A stretch of 32,000 nt of DNA from Candidatus Peribacter riflensis (GTDB taxonomy: Bacteria; Patescibacteriota; Gracilibacteria; Peribacterales; Peribacteraceae). Below are positions 16,897 to 31,929 of the stretch, one piece after another (the stretch's first letter is position 1; the number at the start of each line of letters is the position of its first letter). The stretch lies in contig CP013062.1 in NCBI GenBank assembly GCA_001430755.1, forward strand, positions 210,001 to 242,000. Reading direction: 5' to 3'. Position numbers and translations under genes: made by a program. The notes under the pieces are model-generated. The model searched no databases. It was not told where the DNA came from and worked only from the letters and a program-made list of their open reading frames with translations.

Positions 16897-19800
16897 TCAA
16901 TACGTGATGATTTTCGGGACCGGCACGGAGGTGCCGCGGGTGCAGACGTCGGGATTGGGAGTCTTGTTGCAGACCCACCCCGCTTCGTACTTGCACGCTG
17001 CGCTGCAGCCGTCGCCGCTGTTCTTGTTGCCATCGTCGCAGTCTTCGTACAGATCCCAGCGGCCGTTGCCGCACGTTCCCCGGCTGCAGCTCGAGGGGCG
17101 GTCCTTGAACACTGCGCACGAGAAGCCGGATTCCACCTTGCAGTCTCCACCGCATCCGTCGTTGCCGACAACATTGGCATCGTCACACTGTTCTCCGGTA
17201 TCCACCTTGCCGTTGCCGCACAGCGTGCGTGTGCAGACAGATTTCTGGCCGTAGACCTTGGTACAGGAAAAACCGCCCTGTGTGAGGCACTTGTAACAGC
17301 CGTCTCCTGAGGCGGAATTTCCATCGTCACACCACTCCGGCTGCTCCATGATGCCGTTACCGCATACGGCGAGTGGCCTGCTGCTCGAGCTCGACACACA
17401 CTGGTGGGTGAAGAGCAGGGGAACTTTCTGCCAGCCGATCTGGTGATTGATGATGTTGCCCACCGGCGTCCTCTGCCGGATGAAGATCGGCTTCAATTCA
17501 AAGATCATCGAGGTCGGGTCGATGCAGCTCTTGCTCGTGCTAAACTTGCTGCGATTGATCCGGAAAGTGAAGGGGAAAGAGAACTTCCTGCCCGGCGTTG
17601 CCGGAGTAATGGCGGGCACGGGGCAGGTGAAGTAGACGGGGTATCCCGAGATGCCGCCGGAGGGATAGCTCCTCTTGCAGGTGGGCGGGTAGGAGAGCAC
17701 CTCAGGGCCGCTCATGATCCACGAGACCGTGAATTCTGTGGCCTTGTCGAAGAGGTCTCCTGTGTTCTCGACGACTGCTGTCAGTGTATAGGGAGTATCG
17801 ACGGGGCCGTAGGTGGGGCCTTCGACTTTCAACGTAAGCGCGGGCTGCGGGATGGTGTCGCCGGGATAGATGATATCTGGGTGGAGAGTGGCAGAATCTT
17901 CGGGGCTGGGGCCCGGCTCAGGCTGTGGTTCGATCGGGGCAGCGGGAGCATTTGCACACGTGCACGCATCCACGATGCACCGGCCGCTCATGCAGCTCAT
18001 ATACGTTGTGCACTGGCCTCCTCTGGCGGCCCCCTGGCAGCAGACTGGGGGGAGGCTGCAGCCATTGGCGTCCTTGCCGATCTGCGGAAAGAGCACGCCG
18101 TCGTGGCATGCGGGCGGGGGGGAAGAAGGACAGGACGGGAGAGAGCAGGAACAGTTCTGGAAGTTGCACGTTTGCTGTGGGCAGGGGGCGACGAAGCAGT
18201 TGATCGGCGGGCAGGCAACGCCCACTTCGCACTGCTCGTTCCCTTCACGGATGCCGTTGCCGCACGCCGCAAGCGGCCTGCTGCTCGAGCTCGAAGGACA
18301 CTTGTGCGTGAAGAGCAGCGGCACTTTCTGCCGGCCGATCTGGTGATTGATAATGTTGCCCACAGGTGTTCGCTGCCGGATGATGATGGGCTTCAATTCA
18401 AAGATCATCGAGGTCGGATCGACACAGGTATTTCTGCCAGTGAATTTGCTGCGGTTGAGCCGGAAGGTGAAGGGAAAGGACAACTGCCTTCCTGGTGTTG
18501 CGGGGGTGATGGCCGGTACGGGGCAGGTGAAGTAGACGGGGTATCCCGAGATGCCGCCGGAGGGATAGCTCCTCTTGCAGGTGGGCGGGTAGGAGAGCAC
18601 CTCAGGGCCGCTCATGATCCACGAGACCGTGAATTCTGTGGCCTTGTCGAAGAGGTCTCCTGTGTTCTCGACGACTGCTGTCAGTGTATAGGGAGTATCG
18701 ACGGGGCCGTAGGTGGGGCCTTCGATCTTGAGTTTGAGTTTGGGCTGTGGGATGACATCGCCGGTGTAGATTATATCGGAGTACAGGTCCCCGCCCGCAG
18801 ACGGAGAGGAGGCAGAGTACGTGGGGCACGGCACATTCAGAGGAACAGAGATCATGGTGCCGTTCGGGCCCTGGCAATCACGGTGGGTTGGCAGCACGCC
18901 CGCAAAGGAGCTGGAACTGGCAATGACAGAAGTGCCGCAGGTGGGCTGCCGCGAGCTTGGTACGAACATGACGGCATCGATGGCGAACTGGGCATTGCGC
19001 GGTGCGCCATTCTCCGCGTACAGAAAGACGCCGAGGTAGCTGTAGTCTTTGGTGATGTTCAGATTGCCGAAGTACTGCCACTTTCTGCCGTTGCACGTCC
19101 AGCTGGGGGTGGGGCTGCTCTGCTGGTTGATGGTTGCGCGGGTATAACGGGCGTCCTCGGTCGGTGTCGAGAGGAGCCCAAAGGAGCGGTCGATTTCAAG
19201 GGTGACCTGGCGCGAGAAGCCGGAACTCGGTTCCCATGTGGCGTACATGCTGTAATCGCCCTCAGGAACTCTCGTGACAGACCACCCGCCCCATTCGAGA
19301 GGCCGGTTCCAGTCCTGCGGACCGGAGGCATGCACGTGTTGAGACCCCATGTGGCCCGCGGTGCTGGTCGACCAGCTGCCGAGGTACGACATGAAGCCGC
19401 GGTCGCTGTTGTCGAGCACGATGTCTGCGCGGTTGGCCAGGGCGAGGGAAGCCGCTGCAGCCGAGGCCGAAGCCGCCGTGGCGGTCAGGGTACAATGCGA
19501 AGGCGACCCGGTGCAGGTCCACCCCTCCCGGATGGAACAGCCTTCCGTGCATCCGTCGGAATTTTCGCTGGAATTTCCGGTATCGCACTGTTCACCGCTA
19601 TCCACTTTGCCGTCGCCGCAGTAGCCGTAGCAGTTCATTTGTGCATCACACCTGCCGGTGAGGATACGGTTCCCGCTCAGGCAGCCCACGATGCATAGCT
19701 GGCCCGCGCGGGTGCACCCGCCCGTGCGGCCGTAGGTATTGCCGCAGCGGAAATTCGTGTTGGGCGCCTGACATCTGCACTGCAGACATTCCTGCGAAGC

Positions 19801-19989
19801 GGGGCAGGTGCCCAGACCGGGTTCCATGCACGTTTCGCCCACATCAATCGTTCCGTTCCCGCAGGAGGCGGGAATGGCCTGAGACCTCCACAGCGCCGTG
19901 GGCTCCACAATGATGAGCACGACCGCCAACAGCGCAAAGAGGCCGATGGGGAGGATGAGCGAGCGAAGGCGCAGGAGGCGGGGGACCAT
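16897..19989 (-). CDS. Large secreted or anchored cysteine-rich modular surface protein (about 1030 aa)
   Basis: N-terminal hydrophobic anchor or signal (LLRLRSLILPIGLFALLAVVLIIV). Multiple CGNG..D.GE.CDDGN...GDGC..C repeats of the Myxococcus-type cysteine-rich repeat pattern. One golvesin-C-like putative glycan-binding domain (VLDNSDRGF...AIDAVMFVP). Two copies of a beta-sandwich-like domain of about 175 aa. Start is either ATG 19989 or ATG 20034; its stop abuts the MutY-like stop. Confidence 0.85.
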   Translation of the reverse strand: MVPRLLRLRSLILPIGLFALLAVVLIIVEPTALWRSQAIPASCGNGTIDVGETCMEPGLGTCPASQECLQCRCQAPNTNFRCGNTYGRTGGCTRAGQLCIVGCLSGNRILTGRCDAQMNCYGYCGDGKVDSGEQCDTGNSSENSDGCTEGCSIREGWTCTGSPSHCTLTATAASASAAAASLALANRADIVLDNSDRGFMSYLGSWSTSTAGHMGSQHVHASGPQDWNRPLEWGGWSVTRVPEGDYSMYATWEPSSGFSRQVTLEIDRSFGLLSTPTEDARYTRATINQQSSPTPSWTCNGRKWQYFGNLNITKDYSYLGVFLYAENGAPRNAQFAIDAVMFVPSSRQPTCGTSVIASSSSFAGVLPTHRDCQGPNGTMISVPLNVPCPTYSASSPSAGGDLYSDIIYTGDVIPQPKLKLKIEGPTYGPVDTPYTLTAVVENTGDLFDKATEFTVSWIMSGPEVLSYPPTCKRSYPSGGISGYPVYFTCPVPAITPATPGRQLSFPFTFRLNRSKFTGRNTCVDPTSMIFELKPIIIRQRTPVGNIINHQIGRQKVPLLFTHKCPSSSSSRPLAACGNGIREGNEQCEVGVACPPINCFVAPCPQQTCNFQNCSCSLPSCPSSPPPACHDGVLFPQIGKDANGCSLPPVCCQGAARGGQCTTYMSCMSGRCIVDACTCANAPAAPIEPQPEPGPSPEDSATLHPDIIYPGDTIPQPALTLKVEGPTYGPVDTPYTLTAVVENTGDLFDKATEFTVSWIMSGPEVLSYPPTCKRSYPSGGISGYPVYFTCPVPAITPATPGRKFSFPFTFRINRSKFSTSKSCIDPTSMIFELKPIFIRQRTPVGNIINHQIGWQKVPLLFTHQCVSSSSSRPLAVCGNGIMEQPEWCDDGNSASGDGCYKCLTQGGFSCTKVYGQKSVCTRTLCGNGKVDTGEQCDDANVVGNDGCGGDCKVESGFSCAVFKDRPSSCSRGTCGNGRWDLYEDCDDGNKNSGDGCSAACKYEAGWVCNKTPNPDVCTRGTSVPVPKIITY
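17350..17880 (-). repeat. Intragenic duplicated segment, copy 1 (about 530 bp)
   Basis: Aligns at a fixed +900 bp offset with 18250-18780. Positions 17618-17825 are 100% identical to 18518-18725 (208 bp); the flanks are diverged. Confidence 0.9.
18250..18780 (-). repeat. Intragenic duplicated segment, copy 2 (about 530 bp)
   Basis: Partner of 17350-17880. Encodes DIIYTGDVIPQPKLKLKIEGPTYGPVDTPYTLTAVVENTGDLFDKATEFTVSWIMSGPEVL..., close to the corresponding peptide of copy 1. Confidence 0.9.
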
Positions 19990-20011
19990 AGGAGGACGAA
20001 GGAAAAAAGAA

Positions 20012-23000
20012 TTACTGGCAGGTGCACGATTCAATGAAGCACGAACCGTTACCGCACTTCAGATTGATCGAGCACTGGGCCTGCGGATTATTTGCGCCAT
20101 TGCAGCAGACAGGCGGCTGTGGACAACCATTGGGGCCGGGACCCAGCTGCGGCACCAGCACGCCGTTCGGGCAGTAGGGAGGGGAGAGGGCAGGGCAGAT
20201 GGTCTGGCAATCCTGCGGACAGTTACACAAGTTCTCTCCCGGCCCGCACTGGCCGTTGCCGCAGCGCGCGCAGGTGAATGAACCTCCTGTCAAGAGACAC
20301 GAGCCATTAGGACCGACACGATCACTTGAGATCTGTTGCAGGCCGGCGCAACAGGGCGGGGGGAACTGCACGACCGGTCCGGTCTTGCCTTCCTGAATAC
20401 AGGCTTGAGCGGAAGAGGATCCGCCAGCGACGCACCGGCAGTTCTGCTGGTCGCACACGAGCCCCTTCAGCGGACACTTGTCGTAGTTGAGGCTGGGTTC
20501 GCACTGGCTGTCTTCTTGGGGATCCAGCCAGCCGTTACCGCAGGTCGGGCCTGGAGGAGAGCAGTCTTGTGGGCAATTGCAGTGGTTCTCCCACTCTTCG
20601 CACGTGCCGTTGCCGCAGTCGGTGCAGAGTAATCCGCCGACTGGGAGCTCCGTCGGACATGAGCCGTCCGGCTGGGGAACGGATCCCGGATTCACTCCCG
20701 TGAGGTCCGGGCAACAGGCGGCGCCGGGAATGACTGGAGCTGTTTTCCCTGCAGGAGTGCAGTCCGGGCAATCCTGTTCACAGGTGCACTTATCCTCGCC
20801 CGTACCACAGGTGCCATTACCGCACGTCTGCCACCAATTGTCGATGCACGTGCCCAGAGAACCGTTATCAGGAGCCACACACATGTCACCGACAAGGGTG
20901 CTGCTCGGTCGGATGCCCGCGTTCCTGCTGCAGCAGCTGGTGGGGCCGAAGACGGAGGAGGAGTAGACGGTCTCGCCATTGTTCGCGCAGCCTGCGGAGG
21001 AGGAAGAAGAGGAACTGCGGGGGACGCAACGGCAGCAAGATCCCATGCAAGAGCTGAGATCTCCGCATGCGTCGGTGCATTCAAGCTGGCCGTTGAAGCA
21101 GTCGAGCGGGATGTGCTCGCACTGGTTGTTCACCTTCTGGGCGAGACACTGGTAGCCGCTGGGGCAGTTTTGCCAGTACCCTGCAGAGGAACTGGAAGAG
21201 GAAGAAGGTCCGGTTCCCGGGAACCACGCGTACGCGCCTTTACCGCCGTCTCCCACCCCCACGAACTTGCCGGCACCATAGGTGACGGACAGATAATTTT
21301 CCGAGAATCCCTGCTGCAGGCTGCCGACGACATTCCGCACCCACGTCTGGCCGTCGGCGGAGTAGGCCCCTGCGCCCGACATGCCCACCGCCACAAACCT
21401 GCCATTGCCGTAGGTGATGCCGTGCAGGATGGACGAATCCACTTTCATGTCCGCAATTCCCGTCCAGCGGATCCCATCGGTCGAGTACGTACCCTTGTTT
21501 TCCTCTCCCACCGCCACAAACCTGCCATTGCCGTAGGTGATTGCGTTGAGGAACGTCGTTCCGACTTGCAAATCACTAATGGCCGTCCATGTGGCGCCGT
21601 CCGTGGAATAGGATCCTTTGCCATTCGGTCCCACCGCCACGAATTTTCCGTTGCCGTAGGTGACATCGAACAGGTGTTCGCCATAGCTCCTGGTGTCTCC
21701 GATGGCCGTCCAATTGATGCCGTTGACCGAGTAGGCGCCTCTGCCCGAGTTGCCCACTGCCACGAACTTTCCATTGCCGTACGTGACGGAGAGCAGGGAG
21801 GTTGATCCCACCTTCATGTCACTGATGGCCGTCCAATTGATGCCGTCCGTGGAATAGGCGCCTTTTCCTGAGGTGCCCACCGCCACGAATGTGTTGCCAT
21901 TGTACGCGACGGAAGCGAGCGGGCTCGTTCCGACGCGCATGTCACTCACCCTGGTCCAGGGCATGAAAGCTGCGGGCGAGCGTTCGCAGATGCTGGGCTG
22001 GCCGCTACAGGTCCATCCGCTCTCGATCTGGCAGCTCGCCGAGCAGCCGTCTCCAGCGCGGGTGTTCTGGTCGTCACACTGTTCGTTCCCTTCGATGCCT
22101 CCATTGCCGCAGGTCGGACCGCCTGCCGCACCTGTGGCGAGCACTTTGCCGTTTCGTCCGTTGCCGCCGATGTAGTAGTCGCTCACCGTACCCAGCATCC
22201 ACAGTTCCCCCTGGTGAGAGACGGCCTGATCGGGCACGAAGTCGTTGAGGCCCGAAGGCAGTGCTCCGGAAACAATCTGCCAGTCCGTTCCGTTCCGGGT
22301 GACCGCAGCCGATCCGGCGAACGAGCCCGTTTTGCCGATGAGCCAGATAGAGCCGTTGTGCGTCACGGGACGCAGCAGACGGGCGTTGGCGGTCTGGGAG
22401 GGGAGGGTAGACACCTGCGTCCAGGAAGAGCCGTTGTTCGACATGTACACCTTGCGCGTACTCGAGCGGTCCAGGATGAAGAGACTGTCGCCGATTGTGA
22501 AGGCGTCATCTTTGGTGACGTGGAAGGGCAGGTCCGGCTGTATGCGAGCCCAGCTTCCGCCATCGTGCACATAGATTTCTCTGGAGGGACGTGCGACGGC
22601 TGTCTGTCCGATGAGTGAGCTGATCAGAGAGCCGAAGAGGGAACCTGAGAAGGGCGAAGCTTTGTCGGAGCCGCCGAGCAGGTAGGTGCGATTCCCCACG
22701 CGCAGCGCTGCAGCATCGTAACGGGGAACCGGGAGAGCGAGATCAGGGTTGCTCCTGAAGCCGACCGTCAGAAGGTTGGGGGTTTCGAACGCCCAATGTG
22801 CCACGCTGCTTTCATCGGCGAGACCGCCGAGCAGGAGGGCGCCGACCTCACCCAACTTCAGTGAGGCGGCATTCGAGAGCGGCTGTGGCAGAGAGGCGAC
22901 TCTGCGCCACGAGAGCCCATTGTCAGAGCGGAATTCATCATCAGACTGTCCCCAGAAATCCTTGCCGCCGACGATGTAGAGATAGTTACCGTTGCTGAAG

Positions 23001-26000
23001 AGGGCGTATTCCGAGATGGTGCTGATGAGGTACGACTCACCCAGGGTGCGCCAGTTGAGCGAGCCCGGCGGCGGATTCACGCAGCGGCAGTCAGCAGAGC
23101 AGCTCTGAGGCGGAGCGCAGCGGTCATCGAATCCGTCGCACTGTTCCTGTCCCTCCACACGATCATTGCCACAGTAGCTCGTCAGACACTGGCAGGTGTC
23201 TCTGTTGCAGAATTCCTGATTGGGGCAGGGGATATTCGCCTCGCACTGCTCGCCCGGATTCAGCTGGCCATCTCCGCACCGGCCGCCCTGGGCGGAGGAG
23301 GAGGAACGGCCGCACGCGAGCTTGCACTGGTCGTACGAGGTATACGGACAGGAGGGAGTGAAGGAGGGTTGGCACAATCCTGCAATGCAGCAGAACCGGG
23401 CCTGTTCAGAAATCGCTGACGAAGAGCTGCGCGGTTGCGAGGCAGCGGATGAGCTGGAGACGGGGCGGGGGCAATCCATCGGACAGTTGCAGTAGTTTTC
23501 GCCTGTCGTGCACTTGCCGTTGCCGCACTGACGGATGCAGACGAGGGAGAAGGTGATATCCGGACACTGGCCGGAGGGCTGTGGGGCAAGATTGGGCCAG
23601 GCCACCAGACCGGAGCAGCATGGGCGCCAGGAAGCTTCGTCGATGACTTCGCCTTCTCTCGCACAGGTGCCGGCAGAAGATGAACTCACGCTGCTGACGC
23701 GCGAGCTGCTCGAACGGGAGATGGAGCTGGAGGAGGGAGTCGTAGCGATGCAGCCGCCGCACTGTCCCAGGCATCCGTTGTTCCCGCAGATGCCCTGGTA
23801 CCGGAGAGTCGTGCCCGGAGGGCAGTCGAGCGGGAGCTGGAGGCACTGACCATTGGGGCATTGCGAAAGGCAGATGAAGCCTTCCTGACAACCCTGCCAG
23901 GGCTGGGCCTGGCAGACCGGAGCGATGCTCGAAACCGCGCTGCTCACGCGCGACGAACTGGATGAGGAAACGGGGGCATCGACAGGTTCGATGCGCACAG
24001 CGTCGGCACTGAGGCCGTAGGGGTTGGTGAGCACGACGGAGAGGCGGTTTCCTGAGATGGTGTAGGATCCGAGATCTTTCCACGAGACGAAGCGATACAT
24101 CGGGCCATTGGGCGGGAACGAGTGATCCACCGTTACACTTCCCACCTGCTTTGCGCTCTCCTCCGGAGCGCCGTTGCGAATGGAGTACACGGCGTTCTTA
24201 TTGACGAAGTTGCTAATTGAAAGGGCTCCGTAGGTGGCCAGCACGCGGTAGCGGCCGGGGGAAACGGAGAAGCTCCACGAGGCCATGGCATTAGAATTCG
24301 GCAGGGTTCCGTATTTCAGGGTGATGTCGTCGTCGAAGAGGGGGGTCGAGACGGGGCCGATGGACCAGTCGCCGGGCATGGGGAACTGTCGCTCCTCCCA
24401 CTCCCCTCCGGAAGCGCGGAAGCCAGGATCGCCGTTGTCGATGAGGGTCACGCCGAGTGGTGGAGGGAGAGTAGAGCTGACGTTCTTCACGATGCGGATG
24501 GCAGAGACGACGATGGGGCGGGACATCGGCTCGGAGGGCGTGGGGGGCGGGGTCGGAGCGTGCTCCACTCTGAGCGAGTTGGAGGCCGCCGCCACCTGTC
24601 CGATTTTGATCCACACCATGGTCTTCGTCAGGTCGGGCCATGCCGGGCAGAGCGGGCTGCCGAAAGGAACGAACAGCGGTTGGACCTGCCGGCTTCCGTC
24701 GTACACGCGCCAGAAGCTGGGGGGACAGGGAGTTTGGTTGGGATTGCCCTTGGTGACTTGTACGTAGATGTCGTAGGTGTTGTGCGGCAAGACCTGGAGT
24801 GACCACGAGGAGAGCGTGGTGTTCTGCGGAGTGGTCGAAGTCGAGAAGTTGGGGCTGCCGGTGTTGAGGGTGGTCGTCACGTTGGCAGTGAGCGGTGTTG
24901 CAGAGGGGGAGCAGGCACACGCGTCACACGCGCTCCCTTCGCCGCAGGAGTAGTCAGCCTCGCAGGCCTCGCTGGGTTCGAGCGTCGTATTGCCGCAGAG
25001 GGAACAGCTTTTGCAGGCGATGCAGTTGCGTCCGACAGGGCAGCCCTCATTCGAGCCTGTTTCGCAGACCTCGCGCGGGATGCCGCTCGGTTCGAGGTAA
25101 CCGTCGCCGCACTGCGAGACGGGCAGACACACGTTGCCCGGACCCACGTAGTAGCCGGGAGGACACTCGACCGGCTGGCAGGTGCATTCCACTCTGGTCG
25201 TCGGGTAATCCCCCCCCGGTCCTTCAATGAAGGTGCAGGAGGCGAGGGTGCCGTCGGGGCAGCAGCGGCACTCGCCGTAATTTGGATCACAGGATGTGTT
25301 CCCATACTGGCAGGTGCAGCAGCCCATCTGCGTATTCCACACACCCCCGCGCATGGAGCACTCCATGGTGATGTCGCTGGGGTAGATGGGATTAAAATTC
25401 CGGATCACGAAGCACGCCGAGTCGCCGATGGTGGACATTCCACCGGACGTTCCTCCCTCCTGGCCACCGGTTTTCGGCGGCATCATGCCATAGGAATCAC
25501 TGGCCATCTGTCCTCCCGATTCGCCGCCTGCATCAGGAGGGATGTAGCCGCTGTTTGGCATGCTCGCGGCTGCGGAGTACCACATGCCTGCAGAGGCGAA
25601 GACCGCGCTGGACACATTTCCTCCAAACCAGGGGGTACTGCTGGCTGAACCGAAGGTGGGCAACCAATTGAAGGCAGAGGAAGAAACGGAAGAGGCAACG
25701 GGCAGAGGCGGAGGAGAATAGGTGGCGCTCCAGGCGGCGCTGCTGGAAGGCTTCGTCCACCAGCCTGCCTGCGATGCGGAAGAGGCCTGGCTCGCCCATG
25801 AGCTGCGGGCGGAGCTGACTACAGAACCTGTGGGCACGCACTGGTTGTTGATGCATTCCGTGTTGCCCTGACAGCCGTTGTAGGGCGCGGAGTAGTCGCA
25901 GGTGGTGTTGCACCGTGCGCGGGGCTCGATCATGGGATACTGCCTGATGCGCGGGTTACTCACACAGATGTACGGAAAGCACTCCGGATTGCTGGTACAT

Positions 26001-26722
26001 CCCTTTCCATTGGTGGGAGGAGACATGCCGAGGAACGCATCAATCTGATCGTTGGGCACGCACGATCCGCTGATGCACTGTGCGGCTCCGCACCCGTTGT
26101 AGGGAAGGGAATAATTACATGCAGGAAAACCCGAATCGGCACGGGGAATGGCGGTAATGGCTTGCGCGGGGGACATCGCGCGCTCGATGCGCACGGCATC
26201 CGCGATGACGCCGTTGGTGGTGAGCGCCTGCGGGCGCGAGAGCGTGACCGAAACGGTCGGACCCCTCACCGTGTACGTGCCGAGCAGCACCCAGTTCTTT
26301 CCGTCAAACACATTGCCGGCAGGATCGACTTTCTGGTTCACCGTTGCGGTGCCGATGGTGGTCACCCCATCCTTGATCGTGTAGGGGGCCTGATTCGTGA
26401 GCAGGCTGTAGGCTTTGAACGTGACGTAGATCTTGATGGAACCGGCAGTGACATTCGAAAAGGTCCAGGTCGCCGAAAGGTTGGGGTCGGTGACGACGGC
26501 CGGAGAGACGAGATCTCCCCCATAGCCCAGCGCATGCTGAAAGCGTTGCCAGCCTTGTCCTGCAGTCCTGAAGCCCGCATCTCCGTCATCTATTGTCACG
26601 GAACTTCCGGCGGCGAGCTGTCCCTGCAGGGAATCTTCCTGCAAATTCCACAGCGTGCCGGTAAAAGCCGCGCCGACACTGAGGGCGAGGATGGAGAGGA
26701 CGGCCAGTCGTTTGGTAACCAT
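20012..26722 (-). CDS. Giant secreted cysteine-rich modular surface protein (about 2236 aa)
   Basis: Start placed at ATG 26722 (MVTKRLAVLSILALSVGAAFTG, signal-like). At least two golvesin-C-like domains (TIDDGDAGF...ADAVRIE and LIDNGDPGF...ADAVRIEP). Serine-rich linkers. Many CGNG.C..GE..C.CP.DC mini-modules and CGNG..E..E.CDD...GDGC repeats. Two Asp-box (S.DG..W) beta-propeller regions. The C-terminal module is shared with the neighbouring gene. Confidence 0.85.
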   Translation of the reverse strand: MVTKRLAVLSILALSVGAAFTGTLWNLQEDSLQGQLAAGSSVTIDDGDAGFRTAGQGWQRFQHALGYGGDLVSPAVVTDPNLSATWTFSNVTAGSIKIYVTFKAYSLLTNQAPYTIKDGVTTIGTATVNQKVDPAGNVFDGKNWVLLGTYTVRGPTVSVTLSRPQALTTNGVIADAVRIERAMSPAQAITAIPRADSGFPACNYSLPYNGCGAAQCISGSCVPNDQIDAFLGMSPPTNGKGCTSNPECFPYICVSNPRIRQYPMIEPRARCNTTCDYSAPYNGCQGNTECINNQCVPTGSVVSSARSSWASQASSASQAGWWTKPSSSAAWSATYSPPPLPVASSVSSSAFNWLPTFGSASSTPWFGGNVSSAVFASAGMWYSAAASMPNSGYIPPDAGGESGGQMASDSYGMMPPKTGGQEGGTSGGMSTIGDSACFVIRNFNPIYPSDITMECSMRGGVWNTQMGCCTCQYGNTSCDPNYGECRCCPDGTLASCTFIEGPGGDYPTTRVECTCQPVECPPGYYVGPGNVCLPVSQCGDGYLEPSGIPREVCETGSNEGCPVGRNCIACKSCSLCGNTTLEPSEACEADYSCGEGSACDACACSPSATPLTANVTTTLNTGSPNFSTSTTPQNTTLSSWSLQVLPHNTYDIYVQVTKGNPNQTPCPPSFWRVYDGSRQVQPLFVPFGSPLCPAWPDLTKTMVWIKIGQVAAASNSLRVEHAPTPPPTPSEPMSRPIVVSAIRIVKNVSSTLPPPLGVTLIDNGDPGFRASGGEWEERQFPMPGDWSIGPVSTPLFDDDITLKYGTLPNSNAMASWSFSVSPGRYRVLATYGALSISNFVNKNAVYSIRNGAPEESAKQVGSVTVDHSFPPNGPMYRFVSWKDLGSYTISGNRLSVVLTNPYGLSADAVRIEPVDAPVSSSSSSRVSSAVSSIAPVCQAQPWQGCQEGFICLSQCPNGQCLQLPLDCPPGTTLRYQGICGNNGCLGQCGGCIATTPSSSSISRSSSSRVSSVSSSSAGTCAREGEVIDEASWRPCCSGLVAWPNLAPQPSGQCPDITFSLVCIRQCGNGKCTTGENYCNCPMDCPRPVSSSSAASQPRSSSSAISEQARFCCIAGLCQPSFTPSCPYTSYDQCKLACGRSSSSAQGGRCGDGQLNPGEQCEANIPCPNQEFCNRDTCQCLTSYCGNDRVEGQEQCDGFDDRCAPPQSCSADCRCVNPPPGSLNWRTLGESYLISTISEYALFSNGNYLYIVGGKDFWGQSDDEFRSDNGLSWRRVASLPQPLSNAASLKLGEVGALLLGGLADESSVAHWAFETPNLLTVGFRSNPDLALPVPRYDAAALRVGNRTYLLGGSDKASPFSGSLFGSLISSLIGQTAVARPSREIYVHDGGSWARIQPDLPFHVTKDDAFTIGDSLFILDRSSTRKVYMSNNGSSWTQVSTLPSQTANARLLRPVTHNGSIWLIGKTGSFAGSAAVTRNGTDWQIVSGALPSGLNDFVPDQAVSHQGELWMLGTVSDYYIGGNGRNGKVLATGAAGGPTCGNGGIEGNEQCDDQNTRAGDGCSASCQIESGWTCSGQPSICERSPAAFMPWTRVSDMRVGTSPLASVAYNGNTFVAVGTSGKGAYSTDGINWTAISDMKVGSTSLLSVTYGNGKFVAVGNSGRGAYSVNGINWTAIGDTRSYGEHLFDVTYGNGKFVAVGPNGKGSYSTDGATWTAISDLQVGTTFLNAITYGNGRFVAVGEENKGTYSTDGIRWTGIADMKVDSSILHGITYGNGRFVAVGMSGAGAYSADGQTWVRNVVGSLQQGFSENYLSVTYGAGKFVGVGDGGKGAYAWFPGTGPSSSSSSSAGYWQNCPSGYQCLAQKVNNQCEHIPLDCFNGQLECTDACGDLSSCMGSCCRCVPRSSSSSSSAGCANNGETVYSSSVFGPTSCCSRNAGIRPSSTLVGDMCVAPDNGSLGTCIDNWWQTCGNGTCGTGEDKCTCEQDCPDCTPAGKTAPVIPGAACCPDLTGVNPGSVPQPDGSCPTELPVGGLLCTDCGNGTCEEWENHCNCPQDCSPPGPTCGNGWLDPQEDSQCEPSLNYDKCPLKGLVCDQQNCRCVAGGSSSAQACIQEGKTGPVVQFPPPCCAGLQQISSDRVGPNGSCLLTGGSFTCARCGNGQCGPGENLCNCPQDCQTICPALSPPYCPNGVLVPQLGPGPNGCPQPPVCCNGANNPQAQCSINLKCGNGSCFIESCTCQ
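21221..21958 (-). repeat. Six tandem 123-bp (41-aa) Asp-box/BNR-like propeller-blade repeats inside the giant CDS
   Basis: Peptide repeat W(T)xIxDxxVGxxxLxxVTYGNGKFVAVGxxGxGAYSTDGxx. The DNA repeats strings such as ccaccgccacaaacctgccattgccgtaggtgat. Confidence 0.8.
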
Positions 26723-26800
26723 GGAGAAAGAGGGAGAAGTATTTGCTGAATCGTACCATTGCAGGAATACAGCGCATCCGTGATGGCTTGACGGGAACGA

Positions 26801-26868
26801 TGAAAACAGACAAAGAAACAAGGAGTGCAGGCGAGGGAACCGACGCAGGTTTCCTCGAGTGCACTCCT
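26801..26868 (-). terminator. Rho-independent terminator of rny, minus strand
   Basis: Long hairpin at 26821-26868 (AGGAGTGCA-CT-CGAGGAAACC-TGCGTC-GGTTCCCTCG-CC-TGCACTCCT as read on the minus strand), followed by the T-rich tract tgtttctttgtctgtttt. Confidence 0.65.
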
Positions 26869-28971: not shown

Positions 28972-31356
28972 GTGTTTCCGGCATTTGATTATGACTCCTG
29001 CCAAGACACCGGATCGGGGGTGCAATGGAACGCTTTGGCATTCCGATTGTTCCTCCATCGGCTTTCGCTGTACCTGCTCCCCGCAGGTGTGCTGCTCTGC
29101 CTTGTTCTGCCGGGGCTGCACGGGCGCGTTCTTGCCGGCGAGGGCGGTGTCGTGATCAGCGAAGTGCTGTGGATGGGATCGGATCTCTCCACCTCGGATG
29201 AGTGGGTGGAACTCGCCTGTTTCCCCGCATCGGATTGTGATCTCTCGGGATGGTCGCTCACGAGCCTGAAGAGTTCCGGCGAAGAGGCAATCATCATTGC
29301 GTTCGCAACGGGCACGGTTCTGTCGGCTTCGGAGGCGCGTGTGATCAGCAACTTTCCCGCGACATCGTCACGACTCGCCTCCGATCCTTGGATGACCACA
29401 ACGGCGATGGCCCTGCCGAATACGAAACTTCTCTTACGACTCCGCGATGCGGCAGGCGTCATCCGCGACGAAGTGGATGACGGAGTCGGCAATCCCTTCG
29501 CGGGAGCGAACCCTTCGGGCGGTCCCAAGGCCAGTATGGAGCGCATCGATCTCTCCGCTTCCGGAAACATTCCCGAAAACTGGCGCACAGCGGTGGCGTC
29601 TCTCGGCTTCAAAGATGGTTCACCCATTTTCGGCACGCCGGGCGAAATAGCTTTGGACCGCGGCCGCGAAGGGCCGCTCTCCTCTGCATCTTCTGCTTCC
29701 TCTCAGGCCTCTCTCACTTCTTCAACCTCTTCCACTTTTTTTGCTTCTTCATCCTCCGGCTCCTTCATGAGCAGCGAGTCATCTTCTTCCCTCGACTACG
29801 CTCGGGATGACACTGCGGTGTCATCAGCATCCTCTGCTTCTTCTGCTTCCTCCTCCTCCTTTGTCCTCATCACCGAAGTCCTCGCGAATCCCATCGGAGC
29901 GGATACCGACGAGTGGATCGAGATCGCGAATCTGGGAGCGGGTTCTGTGAATATTGCGGGATGGGTGCTCGACGATGGCAATTCCTCTGCGGAGTACATC
30001 ATCCCACCGCGATCCGGTGCTGATTTTTTCCTGCTCCCGGGCGAGCATGTTTCTTTTCGAAAATCCCAGACAGCCCTTCCGCTCGATAACAGCGGCGAGC
30101 GCGTGAGCCTCATGAGCGGCTCTATGCTCATCGATGCGTTTGCGTATCCTCTGACGGCGGAAGAAGTGAGCTTCGGACGCGATCCCAATCCTCCCTTTGC
30201 GCTTCATGCATTCTGCGTCCCAAGCGAAGGAAGAAAGAATGTCAGCGAGCCGCTCGCTCCGCGCATCATCATCCAGGATGCCGGTGCAGCCACAGTCGGC
30301 AGCGCGTTCGTCGTCGGCGAAGGGCATGTCACGCTCAACCTGCAGGCCGCACTGGGAGCGGGTTCCCTCGCTTCCGCAGCATGCGTGTGGGATTTCGGCG
30401 ATGACGCGGTGAGCAGCGCGTGTAACCCGTCATCGCACACGTTTTCCGATCCCGGCGACTATGCCGTGCGCCTCACGGTGCGCGATTTCTGCGGCGGGAT
30501 CTCGGTGAGTACGCTTGATGTGACTGTGCTGCCAGAAGAGGAATCCGTCGTGCACTCTTCTGTTTCTTCTGCATCCTCGATTTCATCGGTTTCCTCTCTT
30601 TCCTTTAGTTCCTCTATTTCCTCTATTTCTTCGCTTCCCTTTATCCGTGTAGAAACCGGAGTCATCTTGAGTGAAGTGCAGATGATGGGTGATGAATGGA
30701 TCGAACTCTGGAATCCGACCGACCACGAAATTTCTCTCGGAGGCTGGATGCTCGATGACCTCCGTGAAGGCGGGCTTGCCCACCGTAGCTCGAAGAGCGG
30801 AGGCGGGAGTAAGCCATGGAAGCTTCCTGTGGATTCCAGAATCCGAGCAGGGGAGTATCTGATTTTTTCCAGAAATGAAACCAAACTCCAGCTCAATGAT
30901 TCGGGCGATGACGTGTGGCTCATCGCTCCCGATGGTTCCTGGTCGGATCACGTCACGATTCCGAAGCTGAAGTCGGGCATATCGTTCAGTTTCTGCGATG
31001 GGGAATGGAGAAGTTCCGACCCCACTCCGGAGTTACCGAATGCTTGTCAGACAACGGTGTCGTCACCTGCCCCATCTATTGCAGTCACAAAGAAATCCAT
31101 CGTCGCGACCACGCCCGCATTTTCGCGAACGCGCTACGTCGTGGCTTCTCAATCCTCTATTTCTTCTATTTCCTTTTCATCCTTTCAATCCGGTTCGTTC
31201 CTCATGTCCTACGCGCTGTCTGAACTCCCAGCCACCCTTACCGCCGCAGGCCCTGTTGCAGAACAGTCCTCCGTCCCCGAAGTGGGCGCGCTGGGGGCGC
31301 TTTCGGGGCTTGGGATTGCCCTGATGTGGTTTGGTCGCAAATGGTGGGGGCTTTGA
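28972..31356 (+). CDS. Surface protein with three lamin-tail-domain (LTD)-like modules, one PKD-like domain, Ser-rich linkers and a C-terminal hydrophobic anchor
   Basis: LTD-like starts VVISEVLWMGSDLSTSDEWVEL, VLITEVLANPIGADTDEWIEIANLG...GWVLDD and VILSEVQMMGDEWIELWNPTD...GWMLDD. PKD-like CVWDFGDD...HTFSDPGDYAVRLTV. C-terminal PEVGALGALSGLGIALMWFGRKWW. The ORF-track start 28972 is a GTG; in-frame GTG 29020 or TTG 29047 would give a cleaner signal peptide, so the start is uncertain. Confidence 0.75.
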   Translation: MFPAFDYDSCQDTGSGVQWNALAFRLFLHRLSLYLLPAGVLLCLVLPGLHGRVLAGEGGVVISEVLWMGSDLSTSDEWVELACFPASDCDLSGWSLTSLKSSGEEAIIIAFATGTVLSASEARVISNFPATSSRLASDPWMTTTAMALPNTKLLLRLRDAAGVIRDEVDDGVGNPFAGANPSGGPKASMERIDLSASGNIPENWRTAVASLGFKDGSPIFGTPGEIALDRGREGPLSSASSASSQASLTSSTSSTFFASSSSGSFMSSESSSSLDYARDDTAVSSASSASSASSSSFVLITEVLANPIGADTDEWIEIANLGAGSVNIAGWVLDDGNSSAEYIIPPRSGADFFLLPGEHVSFRKSQTALPLDNSGERVSLMSGSMLIDAFAYPLTAEEVSFGRDPNPPFALHAFCVPSEGRKNVSEPLAPRIIIQDAGAATVGSAFVVGEGHVTLNLQAALGAGSLASAACVWDFGDDAVSSACNPSSHTFSDPGDYAVRLTVRDFCGGISVSTLDVTVLPEEESVVHSSVSSASSISSVSSLSFSSSISSISSLPFIRVETGVILSEVQMMGDEWIELWNPTDHEISLGGWMLDDLREGGLAHRSSKSGGGSKPWKLPVDSRIRAGEYLIFSRNETKLQLNDSGDDVWLIAPDGSWSDHVTIPKLKSGISFSFCDGEWRSSDPTPELPNACQTTVSSPAPSIAVTKKSIVATTPAFSRTRYVVASQSSISSISFSSFQSGSFLMSYALSELPATLTAAGPVAEQSSVPEVGALGALSGLGIALMWFGRKWWGL

Positions 31357-31363
31357 GGATCTC

Positions 31364-31392
31364 TTGAAATTGCGTACACATTTGTGTACACT
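31364..31392 (+). promoter_or_regulatory. Putative TA-operon promoter (TTGAAA-17 nt-TACACT) with embedded inverted-repeat operator GTACACA-tt-TGTGTAC
   Basis: TTGAAA at 31364-31369, TACACT at 31387-31392, and a 7-2-7 palindrome at 31374-31389 between and overlapping the hexamers. It lies 26 nt upstream of the antitoxin ATG. Confidence 0.45.
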
Positions 31393-31417
31393 ATGGATCG
31401 TTCTTCCCCTTCATACC

Positions 31418-31726
31418 ATGGCAAAGACCCGCACGATTGGCGTCCGCTCCCTCCGGGCGAATATGCAGAAGATCCTCAACGAGGCACGGAGGGACAATGT
31501 CCACTTCGTCATCATGCGCTTCGGCGAGCCGGTGGCTCATTTAGTCCCCGTAAAACCGCGAAGGAAGCGGACAATGGAGCAACTGGAAGCGGATATCGCC
31601 GAGGCCCGGAGGCAGATCGCGAGAGGCGAGTGGTACACGACCGAGGAGGTCCGGCAGATGCTCGGACTCCCAGCATCAAAATATCGTCGTCAGCGCATCA
31701 AGACCTCGCGCAGTTACCGCCAATGA
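31418..31726 (+). CDS. Type II antitoxin, Phd/YefM-like N-terminal fold (102 aa)
   Basis: The N-terminus MAKTRTIGVRSLRANMQKILNEARRDNVHFVIMRFGEPVAHLVPV fits the Phd/YefM pattern. It lies immediately upstream of, and overlapping, a RelE/ParE toxin ORF. Start moved to ATG 31418. Confidence 0.7.
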   Translation: MAKTRTIGVRSLRANMQKILNEARRDNVHFVIMRFGEPVAHLVPVKPRRKRTMEQLEADIAEARRQIARGEWYTTEEVRQMLGLPASKYRRQRIKTSRSYRQ

Positions 31727-31929
31727 TCGCTGCGCGCATCCTCGACAAGATGGAGTGGTATGCCGCCCATGTCGATCCGCTGCACTTTGCCAAACCGTTG
31801 CAAGGCAGCCGTCGGGGTTTATTTCGGTTCCGTGTGGGTGATTATCGCATCCTCGTGGATGTGAAGGGCCGTATGCACGTCATCGAAGTCTTTGCCGTCC
31901 GCCACCGCAGAGAGGCCTATCAGTCATAG
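31723..31929 (+). CDS. Type II toxin, RelE/ParE superfamily
   Basis: The C-terminal signature LFRFRVGDYRILVDVKGRMHVIEVFAVRHRREAY is typical of RelE/ParE. ATG 31723 overlaps the antitoxin stop (ATGA). The upstream in-frame sequence (IKISSSAHQDLAQLPP) still looks like the family N-terminus, so the true start may be upstream, for example GTG 31630. Confidence 0.7.
   Translation: MIAARILDKMEWYAAHVDPLHFAKPLQGSRRGLFRFRVGDYRILVDVKGRMHVIEVFAVRHRREAYQS

Follow-up and report, generated by a model that had tools for sequence, protein, structure and literature searches.

What purpose is served by two very large, cysteine-rich proteins that are encoded side by side in the small genome of Candidatus Peribacter riflensis? 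The genes, here named A and B, lie on the minus strand of a 32,000-nucleotide (nt) stretch of contig CP013062.1 (positions 210,001 to 242,000), which was analysed as a whole and is referred to as the window; all coordinates are counted from its first letter. The results favoured, with a probability of roughly 0.55, the reading that A and B would constitute a two-protein surface apparatus, exported by Sec and stabilised by disulfides, whose lectin and propeller domains bind glycans or the surfaces of other cells. A previous interpretation made from the letters of the window (the sequence-only reading) had proposed modular surface proteins that are built from a common set of parts, lack a catalytic domain and may serve in adhesion or recognition. 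This anatomy, and with it the general inference of exported, disulfide-rich binding or adhesion proteins, held up and matches the published view, but the description of the locus as an island did not.

The organism belongs to the Peregrinibacteria, within the Candidate Phyla Radiation (CPR), and its genome comprises 1,248,071 +/- 217 bp with a G+C content of 58.5%; curated closed genomes exist (PMC4736985). A and B correspond to ORF_229 and ORF_228 in Table S4 of Anantharaman et al. 2016 (PeerJ 4:e1607; PMC4736985), where ORF_228 (66 Cys, 1030 amino acids [aa]) is labelled 'pappalysin-2; hypothetical' and ORF_229 (140 Cys, 2236 aa) is labelled 'kelch repeat...; putative lipoprotein'. That paper described large extracellular cysteine-rich proteins with a possible role in attachment, weak similarity to Myxococcus repeats and to pappalysin, and a predicted extracellular localisation; 20 such proteins hold 19% of all of the cysteines of the genome (PMC4736985). 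Since Table S4 lists exactly A and B, both the observation and the interpretation of the sequence-only reading reproduce published ones. The core finding, the same two proteins with the same functional guess, was therefore already known; the sequence-only reading was right that the components are experimentally uncharacterised, but what it observed was not new. Neither a module map nor the golvesin-like domains appear in the 2016 paper, which also reported strain-level indels in large proteins; the propellers, the shared 62-aa module, the conservation of gene order and the variation in blade number are likewise absent from it. What is added here is the module map, the conserved genomic slot, an orphan module that is specific to the pair, a lineage-specific propeller with possible blade-number polymorphism, and an internal duplication in B.

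The two genes were confirmed as adjacent and co-directional at the positions that had been claimed for them. Gene A extends from an ATG at 26722 to a TAA stop at 20012-20014 and gene B from an ATG at 19989 to a stop at 16897-16899, within long minus-strand open reading frames (ORFs) of 20012-26821 and 16897-20034, and the same ATG starts were chosen by the gene calls of independent assemblies. Cysteine accounts for 6.3% of A and 6.4% of B, the counts being even in both proteins, and serine and glycine are abundant in both. A terminator scan detected no terminator-like site in the spacer between the genes, and such sites occurred across the region at chance level; a scan of the region for sigma-70-like promoters gave 0 sites. 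Because the spacer is only 22 nt long and carries no terminator-like site, A and B are probably co-transcribed. Pyrimidine-rich leaders, ttcttttttccttcgtcctcct ATG and tacttctccctctttctcc ATG (19990-20011 and 26723-26745, minus strand), stand before the two start codons, and a purine-rich Shine-Dalgarno motif was absent from both of them. A 764-aa ORF on the plus strand (17404-19698), antisense to B, was not called as a gene in any of six assemblies; most probably it exists just because the strand opposite B is GC-rich and poor in stops.

An exact copy of B was found on 18 or more public contigs (ENA, NCBI, JGI), including GCA_001787775.1 and re-assemblies of the Rifle aquifer data. The genes are real; orthologues of A and B with 39-70% identity retain the cysteine positions. 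In two of the public assemblies, runs of N (L004 14243-15590; L003 8444-8594) break EF-Tu into products of 79 + 303 aa and gene A into products of 1816 + 460 aa; these are assembly gaps and not biology. The module map of both proteins is given in the table.

Coordinates of genes A and B and of their component regions in the window (all on the minus strand; domain and export assignments are predictions)
Feature	Residues	Window positions	Strand	Description	Basis or remarks
Gene A		20012..26722	(-)	2236-aa, 140-Cys mosaic protein, predicted to be exported	RIFOXYC2_FULL_PER-ii_58_32_229; ORF, translation, independent assemblies, Table S4
A N-terminus	1-25	26648..26722	(-)	Predicted signal-like hydrophobic segment (MVTKRLAVLSILALSVGAAF...)	No lipobox Cys; highly conserved together with the following GTLWNLQG
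A golvesin 1	41-184	26171..26602	(-)	Golvesin_C (CBM6/35/36-like) beta-sandwich no. 1	PF25275; 65-71% identity in all A orthologues
A linker region	195-460	25343..26140	(-)	Two short CxYSxPYNGC... Cys motifs, then Ser/Ala/Gly-rich low-complexity linker	Internal repeat 202-227 / 275-301; no Pfam match
A Cys-rich region	460-625	24848..25345	(-)	Cys-rich, CGDG/CGNT half-repeats	Cys density map, regular expression; no Pfam match
A unassigned domain	626-750	24473..24847	(-)	Unassigned domain, kept in orthologues	Aligned in P0002-P0005; no Pfam match
A golvesin 2	758-915	23978..24451	(-)	Second Golvesin_C-like domain (LIDNGDPGF...ADAVRIE)	BLAST, custom profile
A mixed region 1	916-1222	23057..23977	(-)	Ser-rich linkers alternating with Cys modules	Self-similarity to aa 1835-2172, regular expression
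A Kelch-like region	1223-1533	22124..23056	(-)	Kelch-like beta-propeller region, four S-x-[DN]-G-x-x-W motifs	Highest conservation among the large domains of A orthologues, 49-55% identity
A Myxococcus-type repeat	1536-1572	22007..22117	(-)	Single Myxococcus-type cysteine-rich acidic repeat	TIGR02232 52.6 bits, cutoff 20.8
A 41-aa repeats	1590-1835	21218..21955	(-)	Six 41-aa (123-nt) YGNGxFVAVG...S-x-DG-x-x-W repeats, predicted beta-propeller
A mixed region 2	1836-2171	20210..21217	(-)	Ser linkers and three more ~70-aa Cys modules ending CGNGxCxxGExxCxCxxDC
A-type module	2172-2236	20015..20209	(-)	Extreme C-terminus of A	CP..pP.C.NGVLVPQLG...NGC..PPVCCNGA....C....C..G.C....C.C
A-B spacer		19990..20011	(-)	22 nt, pyrimidine-rich	No terminator-like site
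Gene B		16897..19989	(-)	1030-aa, 66-Cys mosaic protein	RIFOXYC2_FULL_PER-ii_58_32_228; ORF, independent assemblies, Table S4
B N-terminus	1-32	19894..19989	(-)	Arg-rich N-terminus, then long, very hydrophobic segment	Conserved in B orthologues
B Cys-rich region	43-170	19480..19863	(-)	Cys-rich region with one Myxococcus-type repeat (aa 124-166)	TIGR02232/DUF4215, regular expression
B golvesin-like	190-340	18970..19422	(-)	Divergent golvesin-like domain (VLDNSDRGF...IDAVMFV)
B domain X copy 1	395-563	18301..18807	(-)	Unassigned ~165-aa, 4-Cys domain
B-type module	620-680	17950..18132	(-)	Internal in B	..GVLFPQIG...CCQGA..GGQC..
B domain X copy 2	695-863	17401..17907	(-)	Second copy of domain X
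B Myxococcus-type repeats	876-1012	16954..17364	(-)	Three tandem Myxococcus-type cysteine-rich repeats

The candidate ligand-binding parts are, in the first place, golvesin-like beta-sandwiches related to carbohydrate-binding modules (CBMs), of which at least two had been expected in A and one in B. The Pfam family Golvesin_C (PF25275) matched residues 42-181 of A over the full length of the model at 54.6 bits, well above the cutoff of 31.6. The second domain of A was not reported by Pfam; it was similar to the first by BLAST (E = 2.6e-14) and scored 117 bits with a custom hidden Markov model (HMM) built from 36 such domains of homologues. In B, the Pfam match (aa 190-270, 14.7 bits, E = 0.034) fell below the cutoff and the custom HMM scored 43.2 bits over aa 190-340, values that point to a divergent golvesin relative and not a Pfam-level member. 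Residues 626-750 of A were considered as a third such domain and ruled out, as the custom HMM gave 3.9 bits.

Between these domains lie cysteine-rich spacers. Myxococcus-type repeats, which the sequence-only reading had assigned to both proteins, were found once in A and four times in B. TIGR02232 scored a total of 138.8 bits over the four stretches of B (cutoff 20.8), and DUF4215 (PF13948) scored 52.3 bits in B and 25.6 bits in A, the latter value being just below its cutoff of 27. The mini-modules CGNGxCxxGExxCxCxxDC, which had been listed as a part common to both proteins, were present four times in A but not at all in B, as determined by a regular-expression search; each of them closes a ~70-aa, 10-Cys module, one of which, with the pattern CxxEG..CCxGL..CGNGxCxxGExxCNCPxDC, is included in A aa 916-1222. 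Runs of serine separate the modules in both A and B, as had been noted. When Pfam was searched with ten separate segments of A and B (E <= 1), the cysteine-rich regions, domain X, A 626-750 and the shared module all remained without a match. Sequence searches of the PDB gave E values of 0.16 (golvesin domain), 0.2 (41-aa repeats) and 0.03 (Kelch-like region), none of them informative, and were equally uninformative for domain X and the module profile. No catalytic family was present among the Pfam and NCBIfam matches of either protein, in agreement with the earlier statement that neither has a recognisable catalytic domain.

The part that ties the two proteins together is a module of about 62 aa with ten cysteines, located, as the sequence-only reading had it, at the C-terminus of A and internally in B. 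The two copies (A 2172-2236 and B 620-680) share 44% identity over 72 aa (BLAST, E = 1.9e-20). In an alignment of 22 copies, 65 aa long, the ten cysteines were invariant and the mean column identity was 65%, with the core CP..pP.C..G[VI]L.PQ.G...NGC..PPVCC.GA....C....C..G.C....C.C; the module is the most conserved segment. Two subtypes stay separate across the orthologues: the A-type signature GVLVPQ...CCNGA.NP.AQC is always found at the extreme C-terminus of A orthologues, and the B-type signature GVLFPQ...CCEGAASGGQC occurs in one or two copies in B orthologues. The AlphaFold2 model of the module, in which no metal was included, was compact (predicted local distance difference test [pLDDT] 85). 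The module had no Pfam match, no PDB sequence match and no fold match in the PDB or BFVD.

A profile search of 1.84 billion representative proteins returned only about 20 full-length matches to the module (E < 1e-14), and a later homologue search with the module profile yielded a single fragment. A scan of one genome per GTDB species, which used a single peptide pattern so that other copies may be missed, identified eight module loci, all of which were the A-B slot; seven were labelled Peribacteria or Peregrinibacteria and one was a short contig labelled Paceibacterota. The idea that the module is a general C-terminal sorting tag of many proteins was abandoned because all eight loci recovered with this one pattern proved to be this same slot. 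Weaker matches to the profile were ~35-aa tandem repeats resembling the first half of the module, in small proteins predicted to be secreted, two of which carry PG_binding_1. In P0045 and P0048 these repeats (CP.Y.PP.C.NGTL...G.D.NGC.....C), an unannotated type, follow the PG_binding_1 domain.

Comparison of the orthologues revealed fixed ends and variable interiors. The A orthologues range from 329 to 2494 aa and keep the N-terminal 185 aa (signal and Golvesin_C, 65-71% identity) and the C-terminal module; the Kelch-like propeller is usually retained (49-55% identity). The smallest of them, P0044 (329 aa), consists only of the signal, Golvesin_C, small cysteine modules and the C-terminal module. 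The interiors of other A orthologues hold as many as five golvesin-like domains, along with domains resembling CARDB and additional cysteine modules. In the B slot, two relatives have an FG-GAP propeller in place of the domain X of riflensis. A single X domain is found in the B orthologues P0021 and P0022, together with two tandem modules and a stretch of ~340 aa that is homologous to the C-terminal third of A; correspondingly, A aa 1836-2171 is 31-34% identical to this internal region over 340-400 aa. Interior modules have been swapped between species. A and B also follow a common ground plan, in which an N-terminal hydrophobic segment is followed by a golvesin-like domain near the N-terminus and by the module towards the C-terminus, and they resemble ancient tandem paralogues that have traded modules and acquired further ones.

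A recent internal duplication is present in B, where the two copies of domain X show 86-91% protein identity and 84-88% DNA identity and lie 900 nt apart. Copy 1 is a lineage-specific extra; P0021 and P0022 have a single copy. No match to domain X was found in Pfam (E <= 1) or the PDB. Its pattern is similar to that of CARDB/DUF11-like Ig domains, but an hhalign comparison with the 4-Cys CARDB-like domains of the homologues gave a probability of 4% and this assignment was rejected.

The island interpretation was not sustained by the genomic setting. The GC content of the A-B region (0.60-0.63) is close to that of its flanks (0.55-0.61; genome mean 58.5%), and no tRNA or mobility gene adjoins the region. 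The flanking genes are housekeeping genes (RNase Y, HhH-GPD glycosylase, EF-Tu, S10, RNase III and NusB), and the order RNase Y, A, B, HhH-GPD (on the opposite strand), EF-Tu is kept in at least 11 related Peribacteria contigs, comprising L007, L008, L009 and L011 and all of the informative loci of L013-L020 from GTDB species genomes. The A-B pair occupied this same slot in every related Peribacteria contig examined. Because the GC content is near that of the flanks, the synteny is conserved and the tRNAs are 14 kb away, the region is not a genomic island or mobile element. The only tRNAs, tRNA-Arg(GCG) at 2432-2509 and tRNA-Ala(GGC) at 2739-2814, both on the plus strand, lie ~14 kb from the pair and are unassociated with it.

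Protein A had been said to contain two Asp-box propellers. Two candidate propellers were recovered, and S-x-[DN]-G-x-x-W motifs are present in both; nine motifs of the form S/T-x-[DN]-G-x-x-W were counted, but no BNR (Asp-box) Pfam family matched at E <= 1. For the region at aa 1223-1533, Kelch_1 (PF01344, cutoff 20.1) scored 25.3 bits on the segment and 20.6 bits, in two stretches, on the whole of A; there were also weak matches to NANM and DUF6242 and a weak Kelch match in the PDB (E = 0.03); the Kelch-like fold is a prediction from sequence. The 41-aa repeats were modelled with AlphaFold2 from a six-sequence alignment as a six-bladed propeller with four strands per unit (pLDDT 77.7, predicted template modelling score 0.82). 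In a Foldseek search of the PDB, the best matches to this model were Ycf48, Kelch and designed six-bladed propellers (E ~1e-11, TM 0.60-0.70). DUF6242 (PF19755, cutoff 29) scored 28.8 and 24.6 bits in A, the second value being that of the 41-aa repeats, and the BamI-like equivalog NF053688 scored 30.9 bits against a cutoff of 370. In contrast to the Ycf48/Kelch/DUF6242 (BamI-like) propellers that it resembles, the repeat region thus falls below the DUF6242 cutoff, has no functional tie to photosystem assembly or BAM, and has an apparently polymorphic number of blades. It is absent from the A orthologues P0002-P0006; similar repeats (35-41% identity) are found in giant proteins of other bacteria, among them CPR proteins with YGNGxFVAV-repeat regions such as the Saccharibacteria protein P0010.

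The blade array is also where closely related assemblies differ. When the 9.8 kb of the locus was compared with six such assemblies, the only differences were one single-nucleotide polymorphism (SNP) and unit-length indels in the array. The SNP, at 21818 in blade unit 2, is C in the window and T in the six other assemblies. The array is 123 nt longer in L001, L003 and L004, giving seven units, and 123 nt shorter in L005, giving five. In the five-unit array the junction lies in a stretch of 35 nt over which units 4 and 5 are identical in register. The seven-unit arrays contain as their additional unit a 122/123 copy of unit 2, the single mismatch being the SNP at 21818, and both variants stand side by side. 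Unequal crossing-over from a seven-unit ancestor would account for this pattern; collapse of a near-identical 123-nt tandem unit in de Bruijn assembly would account for it equally well, and the original assembly used k = 40-100 (PMC4736985). Indels in large proteins were reported to set five genomes apart (PMC4736985), which is consistent with real variation in blade number. Taken with the lineage-only 41-aa propeller and the exchange of FG-GAP for domain X in B, the strain-level differences suggest diversification typical of interaction proteins.

Each protein has a single hydrophobic stretch, located at its N-terminus, with a Kyte-Doolittle value (19-aa window) of 2.0 in A and up to 3.0 in B, which bears out the assignment of one N-terminal anchor or signal to each. 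The N-terminus of B is probably an uncleaved signal-anchor, a topology predicted from hydropathy; that of A is weaker and signal-peptide-like, and A has no other anchor. The lipobox [LVI][ASTVI][GAS]C is absent from both proteins and the cysteine nearest the N-terminus is residue 202 in A and residue 43 in B, which contradicts the 'putative lipoprotein' label given to _229 in Table S4. No LPXTG motif was found near either C-terminus, and neither A nor B has a C-terminal hydrophobic segment. Type IV prepilin-like processing of the A N-terminus was rejected on inspection, as there was no G|F(T/M)LxE motif. Both N-terminal segments are unusually conserved among orthologues: the family consensus of A aa 1-29 (26636-26722) is M..KR...L..LSVGAAF.GTLWNLQG and that of B aa 1-36 (19882-19989) is ..LP.GLFA..A.....P.ALW..Q; an L-W soon after the hydrophobic core is seen in most, not all, of the other module-bearing proteins.

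These findings can be assembled into a working model. A and B would be exported by Sec and stabilised outside the cell by many disulfides, and strings of small cysteine-knotted spacers and serine-rich linkers would display the non-catalytic binding domains, namely the golvesin-C/CBM-like beta-sandwiches near the N-termini, the Kelch-like propeller and the 41-aa-repeat propeller. The apparatus would act as an adhesin or lectin for glycans or for the surfaces of other cells; a role in adhesion or host recognition is plausible from the domain content. B may form the membrane-anchored base by means of its uncleaved N-terminal signal-anchor, and A may be kept at the surface by its C-terminal 62-aa module, paired with the cognate module of B or with a common envelope ligand. 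The docking of A onto B through paired modules is a tentative proposal, possible but well short of even odds in our estimation, and was made because the N-terminal hydrophobicity of the two proteins differs, A has no other anchor, the module is restricted to the pair and its two subtypes are kept in parallel.

Several points weigh against this model. The signal-peptide and topology calls were made from hydropathy alone; the N-terminal 28 residues of A are unusually conserved for a cleaved signal, and A may itself be anchored N-terminally. In B the module lies within the protein, and its partner could be something other than A. Given the anoxic aquifer, the cysteines might carry free thiols or bind metal instead of forming disulfides. 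A CBM-like fold alone is no proof of sugar binding, and the 41-aa repeats and the golvesin-like domain of B score below the Pfam cutoffs.

Known proteins offer partial parallels. The closest non-Peribacteria matches to B were cysteine-rich repeat proteins of the DUF4215/TIGR02232 type ('fibro-slime' or 'cysteine-rich repeat' proteins of Myxococcota), whose CGNGxxExGExCDDGNxxxGDGC repeats occur in A and B above the NCBIfam cutoff; these repeats fill less than 2% of A (one, of 37 aa) and about 15% of B (four), however, and neither A nor B has a pappalysin metalloprotease domain. Myxococcus-type repeats also lie behind pappalysin annotations. The family PF25275 is one that we take to be equivalent to IPR033803. 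The IPR033803 CBM of the Bacteroides lectins Cbeg4 and Cbeg5 binds defined glycans (PMC9166713). Like A, as read from its sequence only, Cbeg4 and Cbeg5 are secreted non-catalytic proteins with a Golvesin_C/CBM6-CBM35-CBM36_like_2 beta-sandwich, a likeness which suggests that the golvesin-like domains of A and B may serve as carbohydrate-binding modules; the identity is low, and Cbeg4 and Cbeg5 combine Fn3 with the CBM, whereas A is a cysteine-rich mosaic. With the serine-rich-repeat/MSCRAMM adhesins of Gram-positive bacteria, A and B share the outline of an N-terminal signal, serine-rich spacers that project binding domains, and variation in repeat number, but they have no LPXTG or C-terminal hydrophobic anchor, their spacers are predicted to be disulfide-rich, and there is no homology.

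The best-surviving alternative to a binding apparatus, although itself improbable, is that A and B are structural proteins of the envelope or coat, their cysteine modules cross-linked into a rigid layer resembling an S-layer or sheath and their 'binding' domains holding the cell's own wall polysaccharides. The high cysteine content, the serine-rich linkers and the strict synteny beside housekeeping genes agree with this, as does the recurrence of the first half of the module in tandem in small CPR proteins with PG_binding_1; furthermore, the genome devotes much to surface amino-sugar polymers and has S-layer genes, and its authors proposed that the cysteines give rigidity (PMC4736985). Coat proteins are usually uniform, however, whereas here the interior modules are swapped and the number of blades varies, and no SLH or other wall-binding Pfam domain was found in A or B.

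A binding role directed at nutrients rather than cells was considered less probable still. Under this explanation A and B, by analogy with scaffoldins and surface glycan-binding proteins, would be secreted for substrate capture, with non-catalytic CBM-like and propeller domains by which a fermentative cell scavenges polysaccharide or sialic-type sugars. The Golvesin_C/CBM-like domains would suit such a function, as would the weak NanM-like and Kelch matches in the propeller and the glycogen phosphorylase and phosphoglucomutase encoded near the A-B pair. The NanM match reached 21 bits against a cutoff of 45, however; no linked glycoside hydrolase or transporter was found in the window, and few glycosyl hydrolases were reported in the genome (PMC4736985).

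That the cysteines serve in mineral attachment or metal binding as free thiols is very unlikely. Vicinal CC pairs and dense cysteine clusters are present, the source is an anoxic or oxygen-perturbed aquifer and the 2016 paper mentions surface attachment via cysteine (PMC4736985), but the cysteines are spaced invariantly, in module-like patterns of the kind that disulfide knots typically show, the cysteine counts are even, the module was modelled confidently as compact without metal, and a disulfide-formation protein was reported in the genome (PMC4736985). Finally, the notion that the pair is a mis-assembled chimera or a set of non-coding long ORFs, which could draw on the spurious ORFs that a high GC content produces (the 764-aa antisense ORF is an example) and on the difference in the repeat array between assemblies, was rejected and is effectively refuted for the genes as a whole by the 18 or more contigs with an exact B, the six loci in which the full 9.8 kb agrees except for one SNP and the unit-length indels, the cysteine pattern and synteny of the orthologues in other species, and the curated closed genomes.

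Other genes of the window were recorded alongside the pair. Divergent from RNase Y, a plus-strand gene (28972-31356) encodes a protein of 794 aa in which three Lamin Tail Domains and a PKD domain were recognised. Most of the related contigs that extend far enough upstream, though not L011, have the gene in this position, and its product may be another surface protein of the A-B neighbourhood. The C-terminal half of an ORF at 31384-31929 (plus strand) contains a ParE-toxin domain (37.9 bits), and a ParE/Phd pair is also found near the Lamin Tail Domain gene in the relative L009. Two tandem minus-strand genes, 9889-10695 and 10692-11897, have C-terminal regions resembling type IV secretion system pilins or TrbC (54.7 and 47.3 bits) and are syntenic in relatives.

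How CPR bacteria, with genomes of ~1 Mb, attach to and depend on other cells is largely unknown, and the A-B pair takes up about 0.8% of the Peribacter genome. The basic finding adds nothing beyond the 2016 description; the increments are useful leads. The module map supplies experimental handles, with single domains available for glycan arrays and the pair for docking, and the locus may be used as a strain-typing marker. It is doubtful, though conceivable, that all of the parts hold jointly, that is, that the module is an undescribed fold restricted to Peribacteria which forms an A/B docking pair and that unequal crossing-over among five, six and seven blades varies the binding head. If this were true, an ultra-small and probably symbiotic bacterium would possess a secreted, lectin-tipped A mounted on a membrane-anchored B, with a binding head that varies between strains.

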